From Acidimicrobiales bacterium (lineage in GTDB: Bacteria; Actinomycetota; Acidimicrobiia; Acidimicrobiales; VFJN01), in the NCBI GenBank assembly GCA_046598435.1, contig JBKJIL010000093.1:1-47821 (forward strand): 47,821 bases of DNA, read 5' to 3'. The position numbers were made by a program, and so were the translations under genes. The stretch's first letter is position 1. Each line of letters begins with the position of its first letter. The notes beneath the pieces were generated by a model, which had not been told where the DNA came from, searched no databases, and saw nothing but the letters and a program-made list of their open reading frames with translations. Below are positions 4,094 through 47,821 of this stretch, piece by piece.

Positions 4094-5305
4094 ATGTCCA
4101 CCGAGACCGTCGTCCTGAAGGGACACATCGTCGACTCGCTGCTCTTGGCCAAGGTGCTCGACGTGGTCGTCGACGCAGGGGTCGCCTACGAGCTCTCCGA
4201 CGTGCAGATCGGGCGCACGAACCTCGATGTCAGCCAGGCCGTGATCTCGCTCGAGGGCGAGCAGGCCCAGCTCGATCGGCTGATCGACGAGCTCCAGGTG
4301 CACGGTGTCAACCGGGTGTCCGCGGGAACCTCCACGCTGGTGGCCAGCGACCAGGACGGCGTGCTCCCAGCCGGGTTCTACTCCACCACCAACCTGGCCA
4401 CCGACGTGCTCGTCGACGGTCAGTGGCTGGCCGTGGAGAACCCCGAGATGGACTGCGCCATCGTGATCGCCGACGGACGGGCTCGGACGGCCCCCATGCA
4501 CCAGGTGCGGGCAGGCGACCAGATCGTCGTCGGCAGCGGCGGCGTGCGCGTGCAGGCCCCGGCCAAGCAGGGCGGGCCGACGGCCTTCGAGTTCATGAGC
4601 TCAGAGGTGTCGTCGGAGAAGCCCAAGGCGCTGATCGTGCGCGAGGTCGCCGACCGGATGCGAGCAGCGCACGAGCGGGGCGGGCGCGTGCTGGCGGTGT
4701 GCGGACCGGCCGTGGTCCACACGGGAGGCGCCCCCGACGTAGCCCGGCTCGTCGAGGCCGGGTGGATCGACGTGCTGTTCGCAGGGAACGGGTTCGCCAC
4801 CCACGACATCGAGTCGAACGTGCTCGGCACGTCGCTCGGCGTGTCCGTGGCCGAGGGCACGTCCACCGAGGGCGGCCACGCCAACCACCTGCGGGTGATC
4901 AACGAGGTGCGCCGCCACGGGTCCATCGCGGCGGCCGTCGAGGCCGGCTACGTCACCGGAGGCGTGATGGCGACCTGCGTCCGCAAGTCGGTCCCCTTCG
5001 TGCTGGGCGGCTCGATCCGCGACGATGGCCCGCTGCCCGACGTGCACACGGACACGGCGGCGGCGGCCGATGCGATGCGGGCGCTCATCCCGGGGGTGAC
5101 GGTGGCGCTCATGCTGGCCTCGACCCTTCACTCCATCGCGGTGGGGAACTGCCTGCCGGCGGGGGTGGAGACGTTCTGCGTCGACATCAACCAGGCGGTG
5201 GTCACCAAGCTGGCCGACCGGGGCAGCCACCAGGCCCTGGGGATCGTGACCGACGTCGGACCGTTCCTCGGGCACCTCGCCGACGCGCTCTGCGGTGGCC
5301 GCTGA
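4094..5305 (+). CDS. TIGR00300-family protein (LOR/SDH-like N-terminus; ornithine cyclodeaminase-like, ArgZ/AgrE C-terminal part)
   Basis: GHIVDSLLL, PAGFYSTTNL, EMDCAIV, FEFMSSEVSSEKP, GPAVVHTGG, GNGFATHDIE, GSIRDDGPLPD, LHSIAVGN, CVDINQAVVTKLADRGS are the characteristic motifs. ATG at 4094 follows AGGAG. Confidence 0.9.
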   Translation: MSTETVVLKGHIVDSLLLAKVLDVVVDAGVAYELSDVQIGRTNLDVSQAVISLEGEQAQLDRLIDELQVHGVNRVSAGTSTLVASDQDGVLPAGFYSTTNLATDVLVDGQWLAVENPEMDCAIVIADGRARTAPMHQVRAGDQIVVGSGGVRVQAPAKQGGPTAFEFMSSEVSSEKPKALIVREVADRMRAAHERGGRVLAVCGPAVVHTGGAPDVARLVEAGWIDVLFAGNGFATHDIESNVLGTSLGVSVAEGTSTEGGHANHLRVINEVRRHGSIAAAVEAGYVTGGVMATCVRKSVPFVLGGSIRDDGPLPDVHTDTAAAADAMRALIPGVTVALMLASTLHSIAVGNCLPAGVETFCVDINQAVVTKLADRGSHQALGIVTDVGPFLGHLADALCGGR

Positions 5306-6159
5306 TGGCGGAGCTGGCCTGGGGGCGGCGGTACCTGATGTGCCCGCCGCACCACTTCGGGGTGCTCTACGAGATCAACCCGTGGATGCACGAGGCGGTG
5401 GCCGTCGAGCACGACGCGGCGTCGCTCCAGTGGCAGGACCTCGTGGCCGCCCTGCGGCTCGCCGGTGCGGAGGTCGTCACGATCGACCCCCACCCCAACG
5501 TGCCCGACCTCGTGTTCACGGCCAACGCCGGCATCGTCAACGGCAACCAGTTCGTGCCCAGCCACTTCCGGCATCCCGAGCGCCAGGCCGAGACGGAGAT
5601 CGATGCGGCCTGGTTCGCGGACCACGGCTTCCAGGTGGACCGCCTGCCTGCTGAGCTCGACCATGAGGGCGCCGGTGACGCGCTGCCGTTCACCCCCGAG
5701 AACGGCCAGACCGTCCTCGTGTCGGGCTACTCGTTTCGCAGCGACGCGGCGGCCATCGCCGCGCTGGGCGACCTGGTGGGCTGCCCGATCAAGGCCGTGC
5801 AGCTCATCGACCCGCGGCTCTACCACGTCGACCTCACGTTCTGTCCGCTCGACGAGCGCCGGGCCATCTGCGCGCCGATGGGCTGGGACAGCTACGGCCG
5901 CAAGGTGATCGAGGCCCTCGTGCCGGAGCCGCTGTGGCTGGAAGACCACGAGGCGCTGGCCTTCTGCGCCAACTCGGTGGTGGTGGGCACCACCATCGTG
6001 ATGCCGTCCACACCGCCCCGCGTCGGTCGCCAGCTCGAGGCATGGGGCTTCACGGTCGTGGAGAGCAGGGTCGACGAGTTCCTCAAGGCCGGCGGCGGCT
6101 GCCGCTGCCTCACCCTCGCCCTCGACGTCACCCTCTCGCCAACCCCCGCGAGGCAATAG
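5305..6159 (+). CDS. Amidinotransferase/DDAH superfamily enzyme (arginine dihydrolase-like, ArgZ N-terminal part)
   Basis: MCPP, YEINPWM, PDLVFTANAG, EGAGD, YHVD and EFLKAGGGCRCLTL (catalytic Cys). ATG overlaps the upstream TGA (TGATG). Confidence 0.9.
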   Translation: MAELAWGRRYLMCPPHHFGVLYEINPWMHEAVAVEHDAASLQWQDLVAALRLAGAEVVTIDPHPNVPDLVFTANAGIVNGNQFVPSHFRHPERQAETEIDAAWFADHGFQVDRLPAELDHEGAGDALPFTPENGQTVLVSGYSFRSDAAAIAALGDLVGCPIKAVQLIDPRLYHVDLTFCPLDERRAICAPMGWDSYGRKVIEALVPEPLWLEDHEALAFCANSVVVGTTIVMPSTPPRVGRQLEAWGFTVVESRVDEFLKAGGGCRCLTLALDVTLSPTPARQ

Positions 6160-6245
6160 GTTCCGCGACCTCGCTCTCGAGGCAATTGGTTCCGCATGCG
6201 GAACCAATTGCCTCGAGGTTGCGAGCGCGGAACCTATTGCCTCGC
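6148..6245. repeat. Palindrome family A, left copy (98 bp nested inverted repeat)
   Basis: Outer arms GCGAGGCAATAGGTTCCGCG (6148-6167) and its exact reverse complement (6226-6245). The centre is a perfect 42-bp palindrome CTCGAGGCAATTGGTTCCGCATGCGGAACCAATTGCCTCGAG (6176-6217). Four GAGGCAATWGGTTCC units in total, tandem pairs 29 bp apart. Confidence 0.97.
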
Positions 6246-6295
6246 CACCCGCCGCCGTTCCAGGGACTGTCACAGGGCCGCACCATTCTTTCGGG

Positions 6296-7243
6296 ATGGA
6301 TCGACACGGACGTGATGCTCGCCTGGCGCTGCTCGCCGGCCGCCAATCCGGAGCGTTCTCCTTTGCCCAGGCCCACAAGGCCGGGTTCGCGAGAGCCACG
6401 ATCAGCCGACGCCTCGCGTCGGGAGCATGGGCGCGGTTGCACCCGGGCGTGTACGCGCTGGCCGCCACCCCCGTGACGCGGTACCTGCAGCTGTGGGCAG
6501 CCGTCCTCGCCGCGGGACCGCAGGCAGTCCTCAGCCACGAGTCGGCCGCGCTGGTCCACGGTGCGGAGGACCTCCCGCCGGAGCCGATCACCCTCACCAA
6601 CCCGCACGGTCGGCACCACCGGCTGCAGGGCGTCGTCGTCCACCAGATCGACGACCTCGCCCGTCGCCACCGAACGGCCGTGGATGGACTACCCACGTCC
6701 ACGGCCGCTCGCTCGGTGATCGATCTGGCCGCCACGCAAGACGGATCCACCGTGGGGAGGGTCGCCGACGACCTCGTGCGGGCGAAGCGCACCTCTTACG
6801 GCGCCATCGCCTCGGTGCTCGCCGACGTGGCCCGCCCCGGCAAGCCGGGCGTCGAGGTTGTGGCGGCGGTCCTCGAAGCCCGCACCGCGGGGCACGTACC
6901 AGCGTCGTCGGCCCTCGAGCGGCTGCTGTTCGCCACCCTGGAAGCGGGCGGGCTCCCCGCTCCGGCGCGTCAGGTCCGGCTACCGGGCCGAGGGCCGGTG
7001 ACCGGCTTGGTCGACGGCGCGTACCTCGACGCGCAGATCGTCCTCGAGGCCGATGGGCGGCGGTGGCACACCCGCATGGACGCCGCCCGCCGGGATCGTG
7101 AGCGCGACGCGCAGGTCGTGCGGGCCGGGTGGGTTCCGCTGCGCTTTGTGTACGAGCAGCTGCAGGGCGACCCCGCCGGCGTGTGCGCGATCGTCGCGGA
7201 CACCCGAGCGCTCCGGCTGATCCAGCTGCAGCGGGCGGCGTGA
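6296..7243 (+). CDS. AbiEi-like N-terminal wHTH plus DUF559/Vsr-like PD-(D/E)xK nuclease domain protein
   Basis: N-terminal LAGRQSGAFSFAQAHKAGF...WARLHPGVY; middle LSHESAALVHG and GLPTSTAARSVIDLA; C-terminal SALE...GLPAPARQ...VDGAY...LEADGRRWH...DRERDAQVVRAGWVPLRF. Confidence 0.85.
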   Translation: MDRHGRDARLALLAGRQSGAFSFAQAHKAGFARATISRRLASGAWARLHPGVYALAATPVTRYLQLWAAVLAAGPQAVLSHESAALVHGAEDLPPEPITLTNPHGRHHRLQGVVVHQIDDLARRHRTAVDGLPTSTAARSVIDLAATQDGSTVGRVADDLVRAKRTSYGAIASVLADVARPGKPGVEVVAAVLEARTAGHVPASSALERLLFATLEAGGLPAPARQVRLPGRGPVTGLVDGAYLDAQIVLEADGRRWHTRMDAARRDRERDAQVVRAGWVPLRFVYEQLQGDPAGVCAIVADTRALRLIQLQRAA

Positions 7244-7247
7244 CGAG

Positions 7248-7358
7248 TCAGACCGAGCGCTGCAGGTACCGACTGCCGGTCTCCTCGTACCCGAGTCGGC
7301 CGTAGTAGTCCGCCATAGCGGGGTCGGCAACCACGTTGAGCACGCGTCGTCCGCCCGT
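7248..7358 (-). pseudogene. C-terminal remnant of a GNAT-family acetyltransferase
   Basis: Minus-strand translation TGGRRVLNVVADPAMADYYGRLGYEETGSRYLQRSV* matches the GNAT C-terminal motif (A..(F/Y)Y..LG(F/Y)). The frame runs into the palindrome and hits a stop near 7443, and there is no N-terminal half. Confidence 0.55.
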
Positions 7359-7452
7359 GAGGCAATAGGTTCCAGTCGGGCGCTCTCGAGGCAACTGGTT
7401 CCACTGGCGGAACTGATTGCCTCGAGACTGCCCCGGTGGAACCTATTGCCTC
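7359..7452. repeat. Palindrome family A, right copy
   Basis: GAGGCAATAGGTTCCA (7359-7374) and TGGAACCTATTGCCTC (7437-7452) enclose an imperfect 42-bp inner palindrome (7385-7426). Same 29-bp unit spacing and same 94-bp span as the left copy (6150-6243). Confidence 0.96.
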
Positions 7453-7533
7453 GCCGACCTCCAGGTGGCGGTCGATCTCGGGACACCGACTTGCTCGGGG
7501 ACCCCGTTGGTGGCCACAGGTGATCGTGGCCGC

Positions 7534-7950
7534 TCAGGCGGGGTGATCAGCCACAAGCGCTTCGGCACCCGCCCGCACCGCCTCCCGGACGGCGGCCACC
7601 GACAGCGTGATGGACACCGCGGCCAGCACCAGGTGGACGGCGATGAAGGCCGCCTCGTGGTCGCCGGTGGCGATGCCGGCCGCCCGGACCACCCACACGC
7701 CGATCGTCCAGGCCGCCAGGGCCTTCACGGCGAGGCCGCGCCACGAGGACCCATGCCACACGGCGTGGCCCACGGCCAGGGCCAGCACGGTGAAGCTCAT
7801 GGCCAGCCCGGTGCGACCCCACTTCTCGCCGCCGCTCAGGGCATCGTCGCCCCAGATGTTGCCGATCCGGGTGGTCCAGACCAGCAGCGTCCAGACGACG
7901 AGCGCGATCGCTGCGGGCAGACGGCGAGGCGACATGCGGCGGGACGACAT
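7534..7950 (-). CDS. Hypothetical four-TM membrane protein
   Basis: Four hydrophobic helices, WTTRIGNIW motif, GC3-rich codons. Start is uncertain (7935/7950/7968). Confidence 0.75.
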   Translation of the reverse strand: MSSRRMSPRRLPAAIALVVWTLLVWTTRIGNIWGDDALSGGEKWGRTGLAMSFTVLALAVGHAVWHGSSWRGLAVKALAAWTIGVWVVRAAGIATGDHEAAFIAVHLVLAAVSITLSVAAVREAVRAGAEALVADHPA

Positions 7951-7975
7951 GCCGTCGACGGTAGCCACCGGCTAT

Positions 7976-7993
7976 CTTGACCGGACAGTCAAG
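7976..7993. promoter_or_regulatory. Possible operator palindrome in a divergent promoter
   Basis: CTTGAC-CGGACA-GTCAAG lies between the divergent membrane-protein and acyl-CoA dehydrogenase genes. Confidence 0.4.
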
Positions 7994-8016
7994 TTTGTAC
8001 TCCGAGGGGACCCCAC

Positions 8017-9279
8017 ATGGCCGACCAGCCCACGCTCGAGCAGTTCCGCGACGAGTGCGTCGCCTTCCTCGATGCCAACGCCAAGCTGCGTCAGGCCGAG
8101 GACAAGACGTTCGTGTGGGGCGAGGGCGATGACGACGTCGCCATGTTCGAAGAGGTGGACCGCGAGACCGAGGCACGCGAGCTGGCCGCCGCCAAGGACT
8201 GGCGAGCCCGCAAGTACGACGCCGGCCTCGGCTACATCACGGGCGCCGAGGAGTACGGCGGGCGCGAGCTCCCGGGTCCCTACGACCGGCTCTATGCCAG
8301 CCTCGAGGCGAAGTACGACGTCCCCGGCCAGGGGTTCTTCGGCATCGGCCTCGGCATGGTGGCGCCCACCATCAAGGATCACGCGCAGCCCCACATCAAG
8401 GCCAAGTACCTCCCGGCGATGTACCGAGCCGACCTGGTCGGCTGTCAGCTCTTCAGCGAGCCGGGCGCCGGCTCCGACCTCGCCGGCCTCACGAGCAAGG
8501 CCGAGCGAGACGGCGACGAGTGGGTCATCACCGGCCAGAAGGTGTGGACCTCCGGCGCGCAGTACAGCGACATCGGCGAGATCATCTGCCGCACCGATCC
8601 CGACCTCCCCAAGCACAAGGGCCTCACCGGATTCATCGTGGACATGCACGCCTCAGGCGTGGAGGTGCGCCCGCTGCGCCAGATGACCGGCGGCGCGTCC
8701 TTCAACGAGGTGTTCTTCAACGAGGTGCGGGTGCCCGACGACCATCGCCTCGGCGACGTGAACCAGGGCTGGTCCGTGGCGCTCACGACGCTCATGAACG
8801 AGCGGTCATCGATCGGCGCCGGCGGGGGTGGCGGCGGGCTGGGCGTCGCCAACGTCACCCGCCTCGCCGAGATGCTCAAGCAGTTCGGCCTCGCCAACAG
8901 TGCCGTGCACCGCGACGAGCTGATGGACATCTACACCCGCTACCAGGTGGCCAAGCTCACCAACCAGCGAGCCCTCGACAAGATCAAGGCCGGGCAGCTG
9001 CCGGGGCCCGAGATGTCCATCGCCAAGATGGCCCTCACCGACAACCTCACCCGCACGGGCGCCTTCGTGGCCAAGGTCCTGGGACCCCGCCTGCAGGCCG
9101 ACACCGGCGAGTGGGGCACCTTCGCGTGGTCGCAGTTCATCTGCGGATCGCCGGGGATGCGCATCGCGGGCGGCACCGACGAGGTGCTGCGCAACATCGT
9201 CGGGGAGCGGGTGCTCGGCCTGCCGAAGGACTCGGGGATCGACTCGAACAGCCCGTTCAAGGACATCCTCAAGAACTAG
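8017..9279 (+). CDS. Acyl-CoA dehydrogenase
   Basis: CQLFSEPGAGSDLAGL, ITGQKVWTSGA, FNEVFFNEVRVP, IAGGTDEVLRNIVGERVLGLPK. Confidence 0.95.
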   Translation: MADQPTLEQFRDECVAFLDANAKLRQAEDKTFVWGEGDDDVAMFEEVDRETEARELAAAKDWRARKYDAGLGYITGAEEYGGRELPGPYDRLYASLEAKYDVPGQGFFGIGLGMVAPTIKDHAQPHIKAKYLPAMYRADLVGCQLFSEPGAGSDLAGLTSKAERDGDEWVITGQKVWTSGAQYSDIGEIICRTDPDLPKHKGLTGFIVDMHASGVEVRPLRQMTGGASFNEVFFNEVRVPDDHRLGDVNQGWSVALTTLMNERSSIGAGGGGGGLGVANVTRLAEMLKQFGLANSAVHRDELMDIYTRYQVAKLTNQRALDKIKAGQLPGPEMSIAKMALTDNLTRTGAFVAKVLGPRLQADTGEWGTFAWSQFICGSPGMRIAGGTDEVLRNIVGERVLGLPKDSGIDSNSPFKDILKN

Positions 9280-11359: not shown

Positions 11360-12756
11360 CCGAAGGCGCCGCGACCGAGGGGGCCGTGACCAGTGCGCCG
11401 GGCCGGTGGGGTGACGGCATGCGCGACGGACTGCGGAGCGTGCGGGTCCGCCTCACCCTGACGGCCACGGTGGTGACGGCCGGGGCGGTGCTCCTTGCCG
11501 CCACCTGGCTGGTGCACACCGTGGAGGGCTCGCTCACCAGTCGGCTCCACGACGAGGGAACGGCCCGCCTCAACGCCTTCCGCGTCGTCCTCGAGCACGG
11601 CGGCAGACCCGACCAGCTCGATCTGGCCGCCGCCGCACCCGGCGGCGGGTACGTCCAGGTGGTGCTGAACGGGCAGGTGGTGGCCTCCAGCCCCGCCGGA
11701 CGCCGGCTGCCGCCCCTGTACACGTTGGAGCCCCACGACGACGTGGTGCGCATCGACGAGATCCCGATGGCGTTCACGGAGCAGACGGTGCACGGCGCCG
11801 CCGGCGAGGTGCGACTCCTCGCCGCGGCACCGCTGGATCCGGTGCTGCGCGGCGTCGACGCCGTCAAGGAAGGCCTGACGGTGTCGTTGCCGCTCCTCGT
11901 GGGGGCCGTCGCCCTGCTCGTGTGGGTGCTGGCCGGACGGGCACTGCGACCCGTCGAGTCGATCCGCAGCGAGGTGGAGGCCATCACCGGCACCACCCTC
12001 GACCGGCGGGTGCCCGTGCCCCGCTCGGGCGACGAGGTGGCCCGGCTGGCCTGCACCATGAACGCCATGCTCGACCGCCTGCAGGATGCGTCGACCCGTC
12101 AGCAGCGCTTCGTGGCCGACGCCTCCCACGAGCTCCGCTCACCGGTGGCCGCCATCCGCACCGAGCTCGAGGTCGCCCAGCGCACGGCGGCTCCAGACGA
12201 CTGGCCCGCCATCGCCGAGCGGCTGCTGAGCGAGGAGGCACGGCTGGAGGCTGTCATCACAGATCTGCTGCTGCTGGCGACCCTCGACGAGGGCGCCCCG
12301 CTGCCCGACTCCGTCGCGGTCGACCTCGCCGAGGTGGCCACGGAGGAGGCGCGCCGGCGGGCCCCCCTCGGGGCCACGGTCGAGGTGGACGCTCCGGCGC
12401 CGGTCATCGTCCAGGGCAGCCGGACGCAGCTTCGGCGAGCCGTCGCCAACCTGCTCGACAACGCCGGCCGCCACGCTCGCAGGACCGTGCGGGTGTCCGT
12501 CCACCAGCGAGACGGGATGGCCCGCCTCCTGGTGGACGACGACGGGCCGGGCATCCCGGAGGCCGATCGAGCGCGGGTCTTCGAGCGCTTCACCCGCCTG
12601 GACGACCACCGCACGAGGGGCAGCGGGGGTGCCGGGTTGGGCCTCTCGTTGGTGTGTCGCATCGCCGAGCACCACCACGGCTCCGTGCACGTCCACACGG
12701 CACCGCTCGGCGGTGCCCGGCTCGTGCTCGAGCTGCCGAGCACGACGGGCCGCTGA
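11356..12756 (+). CDS. HAMP-domain sensor histidine kinase
   Basis: Two TM helices, HAMP domain, H-box ADASHELRSP, N-box NLLDNA, DDGPGI, GAGLGL. GTGA overlap with the regulator. Confidence 0.95.
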   Translation: MTEGAATEGAVTSAPGRWGDGMRDGLRSVRVRLTLTATVVTAGAVLLAATWLVHTVEGSLTSRLHDEGTARLNAFRVVLEHGGRPDQLDLAAAAPGGGYVQVVLNGQVVASSPAGRRLPPLYTLEPHDDVVRIDEIPMAFTEQTVHGAAGEVRLLAAAPLDPVLRGVDAVKEGLTVSLPLLVGAVALLVWVLAGRALRPVESIRSEVEAITGTTLDRRVPVPRSGDEVARLACTMNAMLDRLQDASTRQQRFVADASHELRSPVAAIRTELEVAQRTAAPDDWPAIAERLLSEEARLEAVITDLLLLATLDEGAPLPDSVAVDLAEVATEEARRRAPLGATVEVDAPAPVIVQGSRTQLRRAVANLLDNAGRHARRTVRVSVHQRDGMARLLVDDDGPGIPEADRARVFERFTRLDDHRTRGSGGAGLGLSLVCRIAEHHHGSVHVHTAPLGGARLVLELPSTTGR

Positions 12757-26240: not shown

Positions 26241-27641
26241 ATGGCGACTTGGGTGCTGGTCTCCGTGCGATCCCGGGTCACGGCGGCGGCCGGCGTGGCC
26301 GCCTTCGTGGTGCTCACCGGAACCGGTGCGGTCTTGGTCCGCAACCAGGAGACCACCCTCACCGCCACCCTCGACGAGCGGGCCCTGAGCGACGCCCGCG
26401 CCATCGGTCGCCAGATCACCGACGGGCCGGTGCCCACGGTGCTGACCGGCCTCGGCGACGAGGACACCGTGGCCCAGGTGGTGACGCGCGACAGTCGCGT
26501 GGTGGTGGCCTCCGCCAACGCCGCGGACCTGGCGCCCATCGCCCCGTGGCCGGAGGGGGGCCGGAGTCGGGCCCGCGACATCGGTCGCCTTCCGGTCGAC
26601 GACGCCCCGTTTCGGGCGGTGTCCGTGCTCATCGACTCGTCGCCACCGGTGGCGGTCCACATCGCGGCCACCACCGACGACATCAGCCAGAGCGTGCGGG
26701 CGCTGCGATCCTCCCTCCTCGTCACCGTGCCGCCAGTGGTGCTGCTGCTGGCTGCCCTCACCTGGTGGCTGGTCGGTCGCACGCTGCGGCCCGTGGAGTC
26801 GATCCGCACCGAGGTGGAAGCCATCCACGGGGGCGCCCTGCACCGGCGCGTCCCTGTCCCCCGCTCCAACGACGAGATCGGCCGGCTGGCCCGCACCATG
26901 AACGCCATGCTCGATCGCGTCGACGAGGCGTCGGGGCGTCAGCAGCGCTTCGTCGCCGACGCCTCCCACGAGCTGCGCAGTCCGCTCACCCGGATGCGCA
27001 CCGAGGTGGAGGTGGACCTCTCCCATCCCGAGGGCGCCGACCTGGCCGCCACCCACCGCAGCATCCTCGAGGAGGCCATCGGCCTGCAGGCGCTCGTCGA
27101 TGACCTGCTGCTCCTCGCCCGCACCGACGCCGAGGCACCGATGGCGCGGGCGGAGCCGGTGGACCTCGCGGAGGTCGTGCGAGACCAGGCCTTCCGCATG
27201 GGCGCCCGCTCACGGGATGGCACGGCGGATGGCACGGTGGACGTCGCGGTGGAGGTCGCGCCCCTCGACACCGCCTGGGTGCACGGCGAGCGGTCGGGCC
27301 TGGAGCGCGTCGTCGCCAACCTGCTCGACAACGCCGTGCGGCACGCCCGGGGCGCGGTGCGCGTGGAGCTGAGCGCGGGCTCGGCCGCTGACACCGTCGA
27401 GCTGGCGGTCAGCGATGACGGACCGGGGATCCCCGCCGCCGACCGAGCTCGGGTGTTCGAGCGGTTCGCACAGCTCGACGACTCCCGCCACGACGGGGGC
27501 ACCGGTCTGGGCTTGGCCATCGTGGCCGAGATCGTCCGACGCCACGGGGGGACGGTGGCCATCGACCCCGACCACGCCGCGGGCGCCCGGTTCGTGGTGC
27601 GGTTGCCGGTCGTGGATCGCACGGCCGCACCACCTGCCTAG
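26241..27641 (+). CDS. HAMP-domain sensor histidine kinase
   Basis: Two TM helices, ADASHELRSP, NLLDNA, DDGPGI, GTGLGL. Confidence 0.95.
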   Translation: MATWVLVSVRSRVTAAAGVAAFVVLTGTGAVLVRNQETTLTATLDERALSDARAIGRQITDGPVPTVLTGLGDEDTVAQVVTRDSRVVVASANAADLAPIAPWPEGGRSRARDIGRLPVDDAPFRAVSVLIDSSPPVAVHIAATTDDISQSVRALRSSLLVTVPPVVLLLAALTWWLVGRTLRPVESIRTEVEAIHGGALHRRVPVPRSNDEIGRLARTMNAMLDRVDEASGRQQRFVADASHELRSPLTRMRTEVEVDLSHPEGADLAATHRSILEEAIGLQALVDDLLLLARTDAEAPMARAEPVDLAEVVRDQAFRMGARSRDGTADGTVDVAVEVAPLDTAWVHGERSGLERVVANLLDNAVRHARGAVRVELSAGSAADTVELAVSDDGPGIPAADRARVFERFAQLDDSRHDGGTGLGLAIVAEIVRRHGGTVAIDPDHAAGARFVVRLPVVDRTAAPPA

Positions 27642-42973: not shown

Positions 42974-43297
42974 ATGTCTGGGAGCAACCCCCCGAGTACC
43001 AACGGCTCGCCGCGCATCGCGCGACGGGCCCTCACGACGAGCATCGCCGCGCTGAGTGCCGTGGCCGTGCCTGTCGCACTGGTGGCCATCAGCGCCGGCG
43101 GCCCCGCCGACTCGGCCAACCCCCGCGAGGCATCTACCAGCACCTCGTTCCTCAGCGGCGAGCTCCAGCTCGTCCGGGCCCGCTCGACCTCCCGAGCGGT
43201 CGCCTACCAGGACCTGGCCCAGCCGGCCGACCCGGTCGTCGTCACCGCCCCTCCCCCGGCGCCGACCACGACCGCGCCCCCGCCGCCCGCCCACTGA
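42974..43297 (+). CDS. Exported protein N-terminus ending in a Pro/Thr linker; probably truncated
   Basis: AGGAGG RBS, signal/TM segment RRALTTSIAALSAVAVPVALVAIS, ends ...TAPPPAPTTTAPPPPAH* with no downstream domain. Confidence 0.6.
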   Translation: MSGSNPPSTNGSPRIARRALTTSIAALSAVAVPVALVAISAGGPADSANPREASTSTSFLSGELQLVRARSTSRAVAYQDLAQPADPVVVTAPPPAPTTTAPPPPAH

Positions 43298-43389
43298 GCC
43301 GCCGTAGTGCCCGCTTCGCGCGCCACGGCCGGCTGGCCGACTGGCGAAAGCTACCGCTCGGCTGGAGCGTTCAGCGGGTTCACGGATCG

Positions 43390-43447
43390 GATGAGAGTGC
43401 ACTGAGCGCTGTCTTGCGAAGATCGAACAACGCTCCGTGCACTCTCG
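43390..43447. repeat. Palindrome family B, left copy
   Basis: GAGAGTGCAC-T-GAGCG...CGCTC-C-GTGCACTCTC (43393-43446), a ~20-bp imperfect stem. Confidence 0.9.
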
Positions 43448-43504
43448 TGATCGGGATCCTCCGAAACGCCTCGCGGCCGGCGCCCCGTCCGGGATGCTCG
43501 CACC

Positions 43505-44410
43505 GTGTCGAGTGTTCCGCATCTTCGCCTCGGTGTGCCCGGGTGGCCTGAGGTGTTCCGCGGGTCCGCGGCTGTCCGCGCTGGGCTCGTCACCCCGGCC
43601 CGGCTCCGCGGGCCGAAGTACCGCCGGGTGTTCCCCGACGTCTATGTCCCAGCCACGGACGAGGCGCCGGGTCTCGCGCTGCGCTCGCGAGCAGCATTCC
43701 GGTACGCCGGGGACCGGGGCGTCCTGTCGGGCTACTCGGCTGCCGAGCTACTCGGTGCTTCCTGCGCGCCGCTCGACGCACCCGCCGAGGTGATCGTGGT
43801 GAGCGGTGGGCTTCGCCCTCGACCGGGCCTGCAGGTGCGCCGTGATCGGCTCGAGGCCGATGAGGTGCGCGAATGCGACAACATGTGGGTGACTTCGGAG
43901 CTTCGCACGGCGTACGACCTGGCCCGGCAGCCCGAGGTGATCGAGGCGGTCGTCGCCCTCGACGCGCTGGCGAGGAAGGGGCGTTTCGCACCCGGGGATG
44001 TGCGGCGGCTCGCCGAGCGATATCCGCGGGCCCGGGGCTGCGCCGGGCTGTCCCGTGCCGTCGAGCTCGCCGACGCCCGCGCAGGCTCGCCGATGGAGTC
44101 GCGACTTCGGCTGGTGCTCGTGCAGCGCGGGCTCCCCGTTCCTGAGGTGCAGTTCCCCGTGCTCGACGACGCGCGGCGCCGTGCCGTCTGGCTCGACATG
44201 GCTTATCCCGAGCACCGCATCGGTATCGAGTACGAGGGTGCCGACCATGTACGTCCCGAGATGGTGCTCCGTGACGCGGGCCGATACACGAAGCTGGTCG
44301 ACGAGGGTTGGCGGATCTACCGGTTCACGAAGTTCGAGATGTACACCGACCCGGATGCGATCGCCGCAACGATCGGCCGGGCCCTGCTCGCCCCGGCGAG
44401 AGTGCGGTGA
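43505..44410 (+). CDS. AbiEi-like/DUF559-type nuclease domain protein
   Basis: YRRVFPDVYV, LSGYSAAELLG, VTSELRTAYDLAR, GSPMESRLRL, GLPVPEVQ, LDMAYPEHRIGIEYEGADH, D..R...L...GWRIYRF. Confidence 0.85.
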   Translation: MSSVPHLRLGVPGWPEVFRGSAAVRAGLVTPARLRGPKYRRVFPDVYVPATDEAPGLALRSRAAFRYAGDRGVLSGYSAAELLGASCAPLDAPAEVIVVSGGLRPRPGLQVRRDRLEADEVRECDNMWVTSELRTAYDLARQPEVIEAVVALDALARKGRFAPGDVRRLAERYPRARGCAGLSRAVELADARAGSPMESRLRLVLVQRGLPVPEVQFPVLDDARRRAVWLDMAYPEHRIGIEYEGADHVRPEMVLRDAGRYTKLVDEGWRIYRFTKFEMYTDPDAIAATIGRALLAPARVR

Positions 44411-44454
44411 GCGTTGTTCGATCATGAGCAATCAGCGCTCGGTGCAATCTCATC
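44397..44454. repeat. Palindrome family B, right copy (inverted relative to the left)
   Basis: 44398-44451 matches the reverse complement of 43393-43446 at 42 of 54 positions ungapped (hand count). It contains the gene's TGA. Confidence 0.88.
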
Positions 44455-44539
44455 GTGCCGCGTGGCGCAACCCGAAGCCGCTGATCAGTCGAGGAGCCGG
44501 TCTGCGGCTCACACCGGGCACCATGGCCTCAGGACCTAC

Positions 44540-45064
44540 TCAGCGGTCGAGCTCGATGACGAAGATGTCGTCCGCGGTGAGCCGCAGCGGGAAGCCGACG
44601 ATGTTGTTGGCCCCGCTCAACCGCGCCCGGCCGGTGCGGCCGGCGTAGGCGCCTGTGCCGGAGATGGTGTCGGTGTCGGCGTCGGGGAATGCGCCGTTGA
44701 GGACGAACCCGGGACGGGCCGGGTCGGGCACGATGCTGACGGTCGCGTGGTTCGCGATGTCGCCGTTCTCCAGATGGAACGTGGTGATCGCGTCCATCAG
44801 CGGACAGCCGGGCAGCGAGTCGGTCTTGCACGCGACGTCGTCGGTGGCGGTGCCGATCCGCTCCCCGGTGGCCACTGAGTAGAGCTCGAACTCGAACGCC
44901 TGTCGTGCCGGGTTGGTGGACACGTTCGGCGACTCCCCGCGCATGTTCACCGCGATGATCTCGGGGCCGGCGGGTTTCGGCGCGGCCGAGGCCACACCGG
45001 CGGCGGCCACAACGGCGGCGGAGCAAGCCATGAGGCCCAGTCCGAGCAGGACATGACGGACCAC
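44540..45064 (-). CDS. Secreted beta-barrel protein (dirigent/allene oxide cyclase-like)
   Basis: Signal peptide, RIGTATDD, TTFHLENGDI, TISGTGAYAGRTGRARL. GGGAGG RBS. Confidence 0.6.
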   Translation of the reverse strand: MVRHVLLGLGLMACSAAVVAAAGVASAAPKPAGPEIIAVNMRGESPNVSTNPARQAFEFELYSVATGERIGTATDDVACKTDSLPGCPLMDAITTFHLENGDIANHATVSIVPDPARPGFVLNGAFPDADTDTISGTGAYAGRTGRARLSGANNIVGFPLRLTADDIFVIELDR

Positions 45065-45141
45065 GACGACCTCCCTGACAGGCGACTAGACCGAATGGAC
45101 TAGTACTGGCGGGACGGTAGCAGGAGGTGGCAGAGCCGAGT

Positions 45142-45413
45142 TCAGGAGCGTGTGTCGGTCGCCACGATGCCACCGTCGTCGGGCGTGATGCGGGCCGGGA
45201 CCGTCGCGGCCAGCAGCGGGATATTGCCCAGCAGCAGGTCGGAGGCCTTCTCCGTCGGCCATCATCGCGGGCGCGTCACGTGTTGGCGTTGCCGAGCGAG
45301 GGCATCGCCGAGGCGTCGACGATCCGCAGGCCCTGCATTCCGTGCACGCGCATGTCGGTGGGATCGACGACCGCGTCGCCACCGCGCCCCATCGAGGCGG
45401 TGCAGGCAGGTCT
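45142..45413 (-). pseudogene. C-terminal fragment of a GMC oxidoreductase (choline dehydrogenase-like), frameshifted
   Basis: [42 protein letters not shown], then shifted frames DAPAMMA and EKASDLLLGNIPL. Confidence 0.85.
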
Positions 45414-45486
45414 GGGCCGTGCGTGCCACGTCATAGATCGTCCTACCGCGACGCGCGATAGCGCCGCGAACGGGTGGTTCGCTCGC

Positions 45487-46257
45487 TCATCGCCGGGTTG
45501 CCGGGTTGTTCTGGCCCATCGCGGCCGGGAGGGCGTGTGCGGCCTCGAGAAGGCTCGGTCCGTACCAGGTCAGCAGGCGGCCGCTGACCAGCACGGACGG
45601 CACCCCACGGAACGCCTCCGGCCCGTCGTCGGCGGTGAACAGGTAGGGCTCGTCGGGCAGTACGGCCAGATCGTGCTCGGGCAGCGCGGTGGGATCGAAG
45701 CGCGGGTAGCGATCCGGGTCGGCTGCCAGCACATTGTCCACGCCGAGGCGGGCGAGCAGCGCGCCGGTGAACGTGTCGCTCCCGACGGCCATCCACGGCC
45801 TGCGCCAGATCGGGATCACCGCGCGACGCCGCACCACGGGCTCGGGCACCGCAGCCCAGGCCCGTTCGGCGTCGTCGAGCCATACCGGCAGGCCCAGCCC
45901 ACACGCCGCCAGCATCCGGGCAAGTGAGCCGAACGCGCCGTCGAGCGTGCGTATGTCGGTCACGTACACGGCGACGCCCGCGGCGCGCAGCGCGTCGAGA
46001 TCGGAGCGGCGGTTCTCCTCCTGGTTCGCGACTACGAGGTCCGGGGCGAGCGCGACGATCGCGGTGACGTCGGGGTTCTTCGTGCCACCGATCCGCGCCA
46101 CGTCGAGGAACCCGGGATGGGTGCACCATTCGGTGGCGCCCACGAGCAGCCCGGGCGCGGTCTGCGCCACCGCCTCGGTGAGCGACGGTACGATCGACAC
46201 GACTCGCCGCACCGTTGCCGGAACGGGTACCCGGCGCCCCTCATCGTCGATCACCAT
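45487..46257 (-). CDS. Helical-backbone metal receptor (BtuF/cobalamin-binding-like)
   Basis: [52 protein letters not shown]. Confidence 0.88.
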
Positions 46258-46282
46258 GCGGTCGACCCTAGCCGGAGGACGC

Positions 46283-46957
46283 GTGAGTCATCCCCTCGAC
46301 AACGCGGCCTGGTCCTCGCTGGCCGGGCCCCACGCCGGGTTCGCGCAGCGGTACGGGCAGGCAATGCGATATCCCCCGGACGTCTCGCCGTTCGCGGCGT
46401 TGCCGGTGGACCCCGACGAGCAGGCGTGGCGCGATCTCGCCGCACTGGTCGGCCCCGGCGCGATCGTTGTCGTGTCCGGGCCGCCGCGGCCGGCGCCGGC
46501 CGGCTGGGTGACCGTGGGTCGGGACGCCGGCCTGCAGTTCGACGGCTCCGGGCTCGCCGTGCAGCCCGACCCCGCCGCGGAGGTGCTCGGCCCCGCCGAT
46601 GTGCCTGAGATGCTCGACCTGGTGGCCCGCACCCAGCCGGGGCCATTCGAGCCGCGCACCCACCTGATGGGCACCTACCTCGGGGTCCGTAGCGGCGGCG
46701 CGCTCGTCGCGATGGCGGGGGAACGGCTGCGGCCGTCGGGCTGGACGGAGATCAGCGGGGTCTGTACCGACCCGGCGCACCGCGGCCGCGGGCTCGCGGG
46801 CCGGCTGGTGCGCGCGGTCGGCGCGGTGATCCGGGAGCGCGGCGACGTCCCGTTCCTGCACACGGCCGCGTCCAACACCGCCGCCGTCCGGCTCTACGAG
46901 CACCTCGGCTTCACCCTGCGCCGTCACACGGAGTTCGCGGCGCTCCGCATCCCCTAG
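46283..46957 (+). CDS. GNAT acetyltransferase (FR47-like)
   Basis: HPLDNAAWSSL, PGPF, MAGERL, EISGVCTDPAHRGRGLA, PFLH, NTAAVRLYEHLGF. GGAGG RBS. Confidence 0.92.
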   Translation: MSHPLDNAAWSSLAGPHAGFAQRYGQAMRYPPDVSPFAALPVDPDEQAWRDLAALVGPGAIVVVSGPPRPAPAGWVTVGRDAGLQFDGSGLAVQPDPAAEVLGPADVPEMLDLVARTQPGPFEPRTHLMGTYLGVRSGGALVAMAGERLRPSGWTEISGVCTDPAHRGRGLAGRLVRAVGAVIRERGDVPFLHTAASNTAAVRLYEHLGFTLRRHTEFAALRIP

Positions 46958-47074
46958 ATCAGCCCACCACGATGCGCCCCACGACCGGCCCGCCGTACAC
47001 CTGGTGAATCCATTCGAGGTGTGATCAGGCCTCGGCGCGGCGTGCGCCAGTTCGCGGCGGCCCGTGCGGGGACC

Positions 47075-47821
47075 TCACATGTTGCGGCGGTACTGGCCGC
47101 CCACCTCGAAGAACGCGTCGGTCAGCTGGCCCAGTGAGCACACGCGGGCGGCGGCGATCAGCTCGTCGAACACGTTGCCGTCGCCCGTCGCAATGTCCTG
47201 CAGGCGCTTGATGGCAGCCTCGGCCGCGCCCTCGTGGCGGGACTGGAAGTCGGCGAGCCGGTCGAGCTGGCTCTGCTTCTCGGCCTCGGTGGCCCGGGCG
47301 AGCTCGATCTCCCTGGGCACGTCGTCCGAGTCCGGCTTGACGAAGGTGTTGACCCCGATGATGGGCAGCGTCCCGTCGTGCTTGCGGTGCTCGTAGCGCA
47401 TCGACTCGTCCTGGATCCGGCCGCGCTGGTAGCCGGTCTCCATCGCGCCCAGCACGCCGCCGCGGTCGCCGATCGCGTCGAACTCCGCGAGCACTGCCTC
47501 CTCGACGAGGTCGGTGAGCTCGTCGATGATGAAGGAACCCTGCATCGGGTTCTCGTTCATCGACAGGCCCCACTCGCGATTGATGATCAGCTGGATCGCC
47601 ATCGCGCGCCGCACCGATTCCTCGGTGGGGGTGGTGACGGCCTCGTCGTAGGCGTTGGTGTGCAGCGAGTTCGCGTTGTCGTAGATCGCGATCAGGGCCT
47701 GCAGCGTGGTGCGGATGTCGTTGAAGTCCATCTCCTGCGCGTGCAGGGAGCGGCCCGAGGTCTGCACGTGGTACTTCAGCTTCTGCGAGCGCTCCGCGGC
47801 GCCGTACTTGTCCTTCATCGC
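47075..47821 (-). CDS. icmF: Fused isobutyryl-CoA mutase/GTPase, C-terminal part (5' end outside the window)
   Basis: [59 protein letters not shown], terminal VGGQYRRNM. Confidence 0.9.

Follow-up and report, generated by a model that had tools for sequence, protein, structure and literature searches.

In the REP/RAYT systems, a gene for an HUH/Y1 transposase (REP-associated tyrosine transposase, RAYT) lies between cognate repetitive extragenic palindromic sequences (REPs), further copies of which are scattered elsewhere. A comparable layout is described here for Locus B, at positions 43,390 to 44,454 of a 47,821-nucleotide (nt) stretch of contig JBKJIL010000093.1 (assembly GCA_046598435.1, Acidimicrobiales bacterium), referred to below as the window, in which two hairpins enclose one gene for a putative nuclease. 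We put at roughly 0.58 the probability that Locus B is a selfish cassette of nuclease gene and hairpins that is moved by host recombination, and by analogy it may best be read as REP/RAYT-like in layout and homing-endonuclease-like in enzyme. In common with REPs, the palindromes that bracket the cassette gene are cognate to it, are clade-specific and are also dispersed as solo copies or clusters. Unlike the REP/RAYT systems, however, the predicted enzyme combines a PD-(D/E)xK nuclease with a winged helix, the hairpins are longer (58-98 nt) and the gene is gained, lost and inverted. The subterminal-hairpin ends of the IS200/IS605 insertion sequences (IS) offer a further parallel, as does the lack of a visible target duplication in the one pair of filled and empty cassette sites inspected. 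These elements differ from the cassette in that it has neither TnpA nor TnpB, nor identical genomic copies, both its ends are copies of one hairpin and one of its empty sites keeps a clear solo hairpin.

The nuclease fold predicted for the Locus B protein is that of the EDxHD/Vsr-like homing endonucleases, which are likewise multidomain. VSR, DUF559 and DUF2726 have been placed in one PD-(D/E)xK clade that includes the homing endonuclease I-Bth0305I (PMC3424549). This enzyme is described as a multidomain homodimer whose footprint covers ~60 bp around a pseudopalindrome (PMC3239194), which corresponds to the Locus B hairpin in size and symmetry. Homing endonucleases also leave occupied and empty alleles at a fixed site, as is seen here in homologues of Locus B only. 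Unlike them, the Locus B gene is free-standing, outside any intron or intein, and has an intact presumed target on each side; unlike I-Bth0305I, its DNA-binding half is AbiEi-like, its presumed target belongs to a family dispersed in the genome and its cleavage activity is a presumption. The AbiEi antitoxins of the type IV AbiE systems are described as binding inverted repeats in their own promoters (PMC7319586). The Locus B protein resembles AbiEi over its N-terminal ~190 residues and its gene has a palindrome just upstream, but a nuclease fusion takes the place of the AbiEii gene and the palindrome is repeated downstream and elsewhere. Among the titles and opening lines of abstracts searched, with subscription journals outside the scope, no description of hairpin-flanked DUF559 or AbiEi-nuclease cassettes was found.

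Two hairpins enclosing one gene

The presence at Locus B of paired hairpins enclosing a single gene is confirmed (Table 1). The original prediction had described two copies of a 54-bp hairpin, one the reverse complement of the other at 42 of 54 positions, with an exact run of 15 bp. This relationship is borne out and extends to 58 nt, the inverted arms being 79% complementary and 949 nt apart, and the 15-nt run is 100% identical (43421-43435 versus 44423-44409). The stem of the left hairpin is formed by 20-nt arms (43393-43412 and 43427-43446) that are 90% complementary and flank a 14-nt loop, which carries GATCGAAC on the + strand. A search with the 20-nt stem pattern, allowing up to three mismatches, returns four matches, one for each arm of the two hairpins; by chance 0.01 matches would be expected, and none of 100 shuffles gives four.

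The nuclease gene is the only long in-frame open reading frame (ORF) between the hairpins and its TGA codon (44408-44410) falls, as had been claimed, within the right hairpin. The gene call in the protein database begins 16 codons later, giving a protein of 285 residues; residues 11-20 of the longer protein are, however, conserved among homologues. The spacing between upstream hairpin and start codon is similar in homologous loci (~40-110 nt). A scan of 43250-44600 for consensus promoters and terminators found none of either, and an Rfam scan of 43000-45000 at E≤1 gave a single chance match to a snoRNA (E 0.44). Unitigs from two public sequencing runs (44202-44741 and 44300-44474) span the right hairpin and enter the downstream flank; among public runs, no RNA run is listed with the Locus B sequence. 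The TGA in the 5' arm of a B-type hairpin is a stop codon for any gene that reads into this arm: at both empty and filled sites in Pseudonocardia (L126, L129 and L130) it terminates the left neighbour, and at 44397-44410 of the window it terminates the nuclease gene itself.

Table 1. Coordinates of the features of Loci B and A in the 47,821-nt window
Feature	Position	Strand	Basis or remark
Left hairpin, Locus B	43390-43447	+	inverted-arm search; model R2, E 6.6e-9; aligns with Pseudonocardia hairpins
Spacer from left hairpin to start codon, Locus B (57 nt)	43448-43504	+	presumed promoter/5' leader
Nuclease gene, Locus B (301 aa; stop included)	43505-44410	+	ORF list
Right hairpin, Locus B (reverse-complement orientation; holds stop of nuclease gene)	44397-44454	-	model R2, E 5.3e-9
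Left composite hairpin, Locus A (four 15-nt motif copies, two forward and two reverse)	6148-6245		
Gene, Locus A (315 aa; AbiEi + DUF559 architecture)	6296-7243	+	
Right composite hairpin, Locus A	7359-7454		

The Locus B protein

From sequence matches and a structural model, the Locus B protein appears to join two parts, an AbiEi-like DNA-binding half and a PD-(D/E)xK nuclease of the Vsr/DUF559 type. Residues 230-293 match Pfam DUF559 (PF04480) marginally, with 21.3 bits against a cut-off of 20.6, and MTES_1575 (PF18741) with 24.5 bits, under the cut-off of 38.2; three homologues give a similar score pattern. The AbiEi models of PADLOC match residues 63-199 at E 7e-7, and no AbiEi match is found in a Pfam scan at E≤1. 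The original prediction that the gene encodes a DUF559-type nuclease in place of a DDE or HUH transposase agrees with these Pfam scans, in which no DDE, HUH/Y1 or serine/tyrosine transposase family is matched. A search of the sequences of solved structures gave no match with E under 0.36. The AlphaFold model (27 aligned sequences; mean predicted local distance difference test score, pLDDT, 91.3) was compared by Foldseek with the Protein Data Bank (PDB). Residues ~1-190 match AbiEi (6y8q, E 1.4e-4) and Rv2827c (1zel), and the C-terminal ~100 residues match the catalytic domain of I-Bth0305I (3r3p), with a template-modelling (TM) score of 0.73 on the target and a root-mean-square deviation of 2.5 Å over 99 columns, as well as Vsr (1cw0/1vsr). 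The closest solved fold of the modelled nuclease half would thus be that of a homing endonuclease. Four residues (D231, E242, H248 and D257) are invariant across the 27 aligned sequences. A homodimer was also predicted, for which a control scored equally high.

An AbiEii (DUF1814 nucleotidyltransferase) partner was not found among the four neighbouring genes scanned, two of which match no family while the others match a periplasmic binding protein and a GNAT. The nearest proteins in a collection of 5.8 billion are 58-70% identical to the Locus B protein, and all nine of these that carry an organism name come from Pseudonocardia. Among 400 further genomes sampled from the assembly's own class, the best match is only ~35% identical, and a protein-guided scan of metagenomes retrieved only four loci, at 41-55% identity.

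A family of symmetric hairpins in Pseudonocardia

The two hairpins of the window align well with 13 others from seven Pseudonocardia genomes. Conserved in the 15 sequences are an outer GAGA/TCTC and the loop, again with GATCGAAC; the middle of the stem varies, and further in lies a palindromic CAGCGCTG. The hairpins contain no purine-rich triplex motif. Across their 20-pair stem, 83.6% of cells pair compared with 72.1% in shuffles, and none of 500 shuffles reaches the observed value. Ten of the 20 pairs have changed on both sides, and controls in which the arms are slid pair at 24-49%. The dyad symmetry of the B-type hairpins has therefore been kept through compensatory changes, a pattern that would fit a folded hairpin and the symmetric binding site of a dimer alike. 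When a covariance model (R2) was built from the 13 Pseudonocardia hairpins without the window sequence, it identified exactly the two Locus B flanks in the window, on opposite strands, the next best match having an E value of 0.039. The Locus B hairpins belong to the family that flanks Pseudonocardia homologues 54-69% identical in protein sequence.

The source assembly has no B hairpins other than the pair flanking Locus B. In Pseudonocardia it is dispersed: at E≤0.01 the B-hairpin covariance model gives 81, 35, 20, 10 and 7 matches in five genomes, and at E≤1e-4 it gives between 5 and 59 in each of them, counts that include both strands, so that the number of places is roughly half. Of 81 Pseudonocardia genomes, 62 have a match to the model at E≤1e-4 and 74 encode a homologue of the Locus B protein at E≤1e-40, with up to 11 such homologues per genome at identities of 42-69%. 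Of the 36 genomes whose homologue is close (E≤1e-80), 33 have hairpins, compared with 29 of the 45 others (Fisher p 0.004; p 0.049 at a gene threshold of 1e-40), and gene and hairpin correlate across the 81 genomes with a Spearman coefficient of 0.37. Among 27 loci scanned with the model, six encode a protein with 56% identity or more to that of Locus B, and four of these six have a hairpin on both sides. One locus (L119, G437:C1:2123661-2127098; 2078-2473 of the locus) has five tandem B-type hairpins, spaced at 82 nt, beside a truncated homologue.

Gain, loss, inversion and decay at a fixed site

The history of cassettes related to Locus B could be followed at one site in Pseudonocardia, for which the flanks of a cassette in G436, whose protein is 67% identical to that of the window, were searched in 81 genomes, one per species, and 12 loci were read. 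The site is filled in G436 and, with a forward gene between two hairpins, in G457, G497 and G490; by flank-match coordinates, G435 (P. pini) has a cassette at the same site. It is empty in G472, where the 21-nt gap given by flank-match coordinates holds one clear solo hairpin of the same family, in G508, where a gap of 25 nt holds a shorter hairpin-like remnant, and in G462 and G454, with gaps of 95 and 121 nt, respectively. In G510 the gene is reversed while both hairpins are oriented as the flanks are. Read from the coding strand, the hairpin pair is therefore +/+ in G457, whereas G510 has -/- and the window +/-. Decay is seen in G442, where two hairpins ~390 nt apart (L134, G442:C85:17100-18000) enclose an internally deleted copy retaining residues 8-71 and 252-294 only, and in G511, where a gap of 254 nt contains short cassette remnants. 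The deleted cassette of G442 is a possible non-autonomous derivative. In G487 and G503 the site is occupied by ~0.8 kb of other DNA. Homologous cassettes are thus present, absent, inverted or decayed at a fixed site, with insertions and deletions that end at the hairpins.

Empty alleles, which the original prediction had proposed to look for together with target duplications, were found for homologous units of both the B-type clade and the clade of Locus A (see below) and not for Locus B itself. Among the 30 genomes of the assembly's genus, the downstream stretches examined (1.5 kb in 11 loci and 6.7-8.3 kb in 10 loci) have neither the neighbours nor a DUF559 gene. In Pseudonocardia, searched without a left-flank anchor, orthologues of 45516-46950 do not lie beside the cassette or the gene at 44540-45064. 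An exact 26-nt word of the left flank has no match in metagenome contigs, and contigs from four soil runs of one study cover parts of the region at ≥99% identity without any that skips the cassette.

Locus A and cassettes across the class

A second gene of this architecture, Locus A, lies near the other end of the window. Its protein, which is 28% identical to the Locus B protein, matches Pfam AbiEi_4 with 41.6 bits and DUF559 with 22.4 bits, and the AbiEi model of PADLOC at E 3.8e-33. The composite hairpins on its two sides measure 96-98 nt, and 14 further contigs of the assembly (3.47 Mb, 336 contigs, 71% GC) carry the repeat. Altogether the assembly has five paralogues, 28-34% identical and without near-identical copies. 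Four of them are bracketed by hairpin copies, every pair with its own sequence; besides Loci A and B, these are the genes of contigs C202 and C153.

On both sides of Locus A (4800-6165 and 7603-8800) the sequence is conserved across the genus, and none of 13 same-genus loci examined at this site has a DUF559 gene. In G017 the stretch corresponding to 6166-7602 is replaced by 28 nt that hold a single 17-nt copy of the hairpin motif, and in G003 the flanks are 70 nt apart. Orthologues of Locus A (62-68% protein identity) are found elsewhere: in eight genomes between two other conserved blocks, in G012 at a third site and in G008 near the site of the window. At the common site, two convergent genes lie 4 nt apart in G020; G003 has in this place 1249 nt made up of a composite hairpin, the gene and a second composite hairpin. 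The junctions of this pair are ~85-91% identical and no target duplication is visible at them. In G015, G019 and G022 the cassette stands on different sides of an extra gene, which is present without the cassette in G041, G016, G024 and G045. Within any one genome, the hairpins on the left and on the right carry that genome's own motif variant. In L096 (G010:C93:44000-50800) the orthologue is split, with residues 1-91 lying ~1.4 kb from the remainder across an apparent insertion. Two contigs of the assembly, C177 (near 400-420) and C167 (near 384-554), lose their homology to relatives ~400 nt inside their ends, at exactly the position that the cassette orthologue has in eight related genomes.

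A survey of 401 sampled genomes of the class gave 29 best loci from other genomes, one of which (L056) was dropped for want of a tblastn match; the 28 loci scored include two with truncated upstream flanks. Pairs of upstream and downstream repeats were scored with blastn-short and compared with 400 random, geometry-matched pairs from the assembly. Pairs of at least 40 bits occur in 18 of the 28 homologous loci and in none of the 400 controls, the maximum of which is 30.2 bits. The repeats are locus-specific and most fold as hairpins, in direct as well as inverted arrangement. In most loci the upstream copy ends ~40-110 nt before the start codon and the downstream copy begins between -14 and +62 nt from the stop, and up to +230 nt. 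The five paralogues of the assembly score 30.2 (Locus B), 46.1 (Locus A), 30.2, 77.8 and 22.3 bits, only two of them above every control. Of ten loci from species genomes (seven of Pseudonocardia and three of actinobacterial metagenome-assembled genomes), six have flank pairs above the control maximum. Each gene clade has its own cognate hairpin. Two genomes, G004 (one of the 30 of the genus; loci L011, L028 and L103) and G315 (one of the 401), bear on none of the conclusions.

Origin of the right end of the contig

Homology of the window to the genus of the assembly reaches ~43294 and then stops, and 44455-47075 has no match in 29 same-genus genomes. The 256-residue protein encoded at 45490-46257 is 75-89% identical to the homologues listed, among which those with an organism name are nearly all from Pseudonocardia (78-86%). 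Similarly, 45516-46950 and 47075-47821 share 73-88% DNA identity with Pseudonocardia genomes and are collinear in G469. The segment 47075-47806 is 76-80% identical to genomes of the genus and 86-88% identical to Pseudonocardia, and a second copy of it, 79% identical, is present in the assembly at C105:588-1325. No unitig from four public runs covers 43302-43435. By these comparisons, ~43300-47821, including the whole cassette, comes from a Pseudonocardia-like organism, and the contig is probably chimeric, or carries transferred DNA, with the joint just left of the cassette. A mis-join and a real transfer both fit the data; transfer from Pseudonocardia into a genome of the Acidimicrobiia is thus unproven, as a chimeric contig explains the Pseudonocardia-like right end at least as well. 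The same origin would account for the B hairpin being unique in the assembly. The idea that this uniqueness sets it apart from a dispersed repeat was rejected in view of both the Pseudonocardia-like contig end and the dispersal of the hairpin in Pseudonocardia. Elsewhere in the window there is a direct repeat of 256 nt (11923-12178 and 26763-27018, 79% identical) with a second block (12409-12495 and 27279-27365), which probably reflects a pair of paralogous genes separated by 14.8 kb.

Mechanism and alternative explanations

In the route that we favour, the AbiEi-like winged-helix half of the protein would recognize, by sequence and symmetry, the palindromic hairpins of ~60 bp on either side of its gene and the Vsr-type half would cut at or near such hairpins. 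Joining would be left to host recombination and repair, with the hairpin copies serving as homology, because a PD-(D/E)xK nuclease cannot join DNA itself. The gene could thereby be copied or moved among hairpin sites, be lost to leave a solo hairpin or be flipped between its hairpins, and the hairpins would also spread through the genome as solo copies that serve as landing pads. As such a nuclease cannot ligate, a homing-like route is the most economical, and it would lead to solo hairpins at empty sites, a free orientation of the hairpins, internal deletions, matched copies and dispersed solos. The original prediction of hairpins as terminal inverted repeats of a ~1.06-kb IS-like unit is in part retained: the repeats are inverted at Locus B but often direct in relatives, so that this is no rule of the family, and the unit is discrete, running from hairpin through gene to hairpin, but is not like a classical IS. 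It has no transposase, and the direct repeats in many relatives, the inverted gene of G510, the solo hairpin, the lack of a visible duplication in the one pair inspected and the lack of near-identical copies all speak against that class. The solo hairpin kept at one empty site would also bring the attC-bounded gene cassettes of integrons into consideration.

Several observations weigh against this route. No empty allele, excision joint or second copy was found for Locus B of the window itself, and the DNA binding, the cleavage and the route of movement of its protein are steps that we infer. Two intact hairpins in a filled allele are not what simple homing predicts, as its insertions would destroy the target. 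The empty sites also differ between the clades: those of the B-type clade have a clear solo hairpin in one case and a remnant in another, compared with no hairpin (G020) and one 17-nt motif (G017) in that of Locus A. The within-genome copies appear to be old, the paralogues being 28-34% identical, with no sign of recent transposition. Ten of the 28 surveyed loci have no repeat pair, and the C25 paralogue (C25:6943-8080) has two hairpin copies upstream (~7930-7990 and ~8020-8080) and none downstream. The flank pair of Locus B, whose 30.2 bits come from the 15-nt run alone, only equals the control maximum; its significance comes from the arm search, the stem pattern and model R2, and not from blastn-short. 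The association of gene and hairpin has a p value of 0.11 at a gene threshold of 1e-60, and co-occurrence would lend moderate support only, since related genomes are not independent and relatedness was left uncorrected.

The turnover at fixed sites also bears on whether the gene moves at all. In a REP/RAYT-like arrangement, a single-copy nuclease kept by the host could make, spread or trim its cognate hairpins without moving any longer itself, the two flanking hairpins being mere remains of its origin. The layout is the same as that of RAYT genes between cognate REPs, dispersed hairpins go with few gene copies, the paralogues of one genome have diverged strongly and the array of five hairpins at 82-nt spacing in L119 would suit such an activity. 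However, for a gene kept by its host the turnover is excessive, as fixed sites show gene and hairpins in filled, empty, inverted and decayed states and the location of orthologues differs within one genus; moreover, the Pfam scans found no HUH domain. We therefore consider a resident partner of this kind unlikely. A different use of the upstream palindrome is suggested by the N-terminal half of the protein, which matches AbiEi by sequence and fold, by the binding of AbiEi to inverted repeats of its own promoter described in PMC7319586, and by the position of the upstream hairpin 40-110 nt before the start in most loci. The gene might then be a self-repressing, stand-alone toxin or defence nuclease, with the upstream palindrome as operator and the downstream one as terminator or second operator, and its presence or absence would reflect the usual turnover of defence genes in place of movement driven by the protein. 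The four neighbouring genes scanned include no AbiEii partner, however, and such regulation fails to explain why the hairpin recurs at the 3' end and overlaps the stop codon, why solo copies stand at dozens of sites, why insertions and deletions end at hairpins and why hairpin orientation is free relative to the gene; this explanation, too, seems improbable.

A coincidental flanking of the gene by ordinary terminator-like or REP-like host repeats is disfavoured, and we regard it as very improbable. The B-type hairpin family is indeed a dispersed repeat in Pseudonocardia and by blastn-short the Locus B pair is no better than the best random control. Nevertheless, chance does not account for the repeat pairs of the surveyed loci against none in the controls, for clade-specific hairpin sequences, for genome-specific variants common to left and right copies or for the selection of only the two Locus B flanks by a model that contains no window sequence. 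A cassette moved by host recombination thus remains our preferred explanation.

Implications for the DUF559 family and palindromic repeats

Genes of the DUF559 or 'endonuclease domain-containing' kind are very common in Actinobacteria, and a first look yields between 12 and 67 candidates per Pseudonocardia genome. To our knowledge these genes have no assigned role, and we know of no source for many of the long palindromic repeats of GC-rich genomes. More tentatively, and at somewhat less than even odds in our estimate, the fusions of AbiEi-like and Vsr-type domains with cognate hairpins of ~60-100 bp may constitute an undescribed superfamily of bacterial mobile elements, a PD-(D/E)xK counterpart of REP/RAYT and IS200/IS605. 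In such a superfamily the hairpin would be element end, landing pad and dispersed repeat at once, and the nuclease would cut the hairpin, possibly as a cruciform, leaving host recombination to copy, delete or flip the gene. If true, this would explain the families of long palindromic repeats in actinobacteria and many of their 'DUF559' genes. Hairpins of this kind also break or mis-join assemblies, of which the contig studied here is probably an example. Should the link between gene and hairpin hold, it would provide a function for a large gene family and a mechanism for a class of repeats, and a simple nuclease without joining activity would be driving DNA mobility in a new way. It could possibly also furnish a set of structure-aware nucleases, specific for ~60 bp, with their matched targets.

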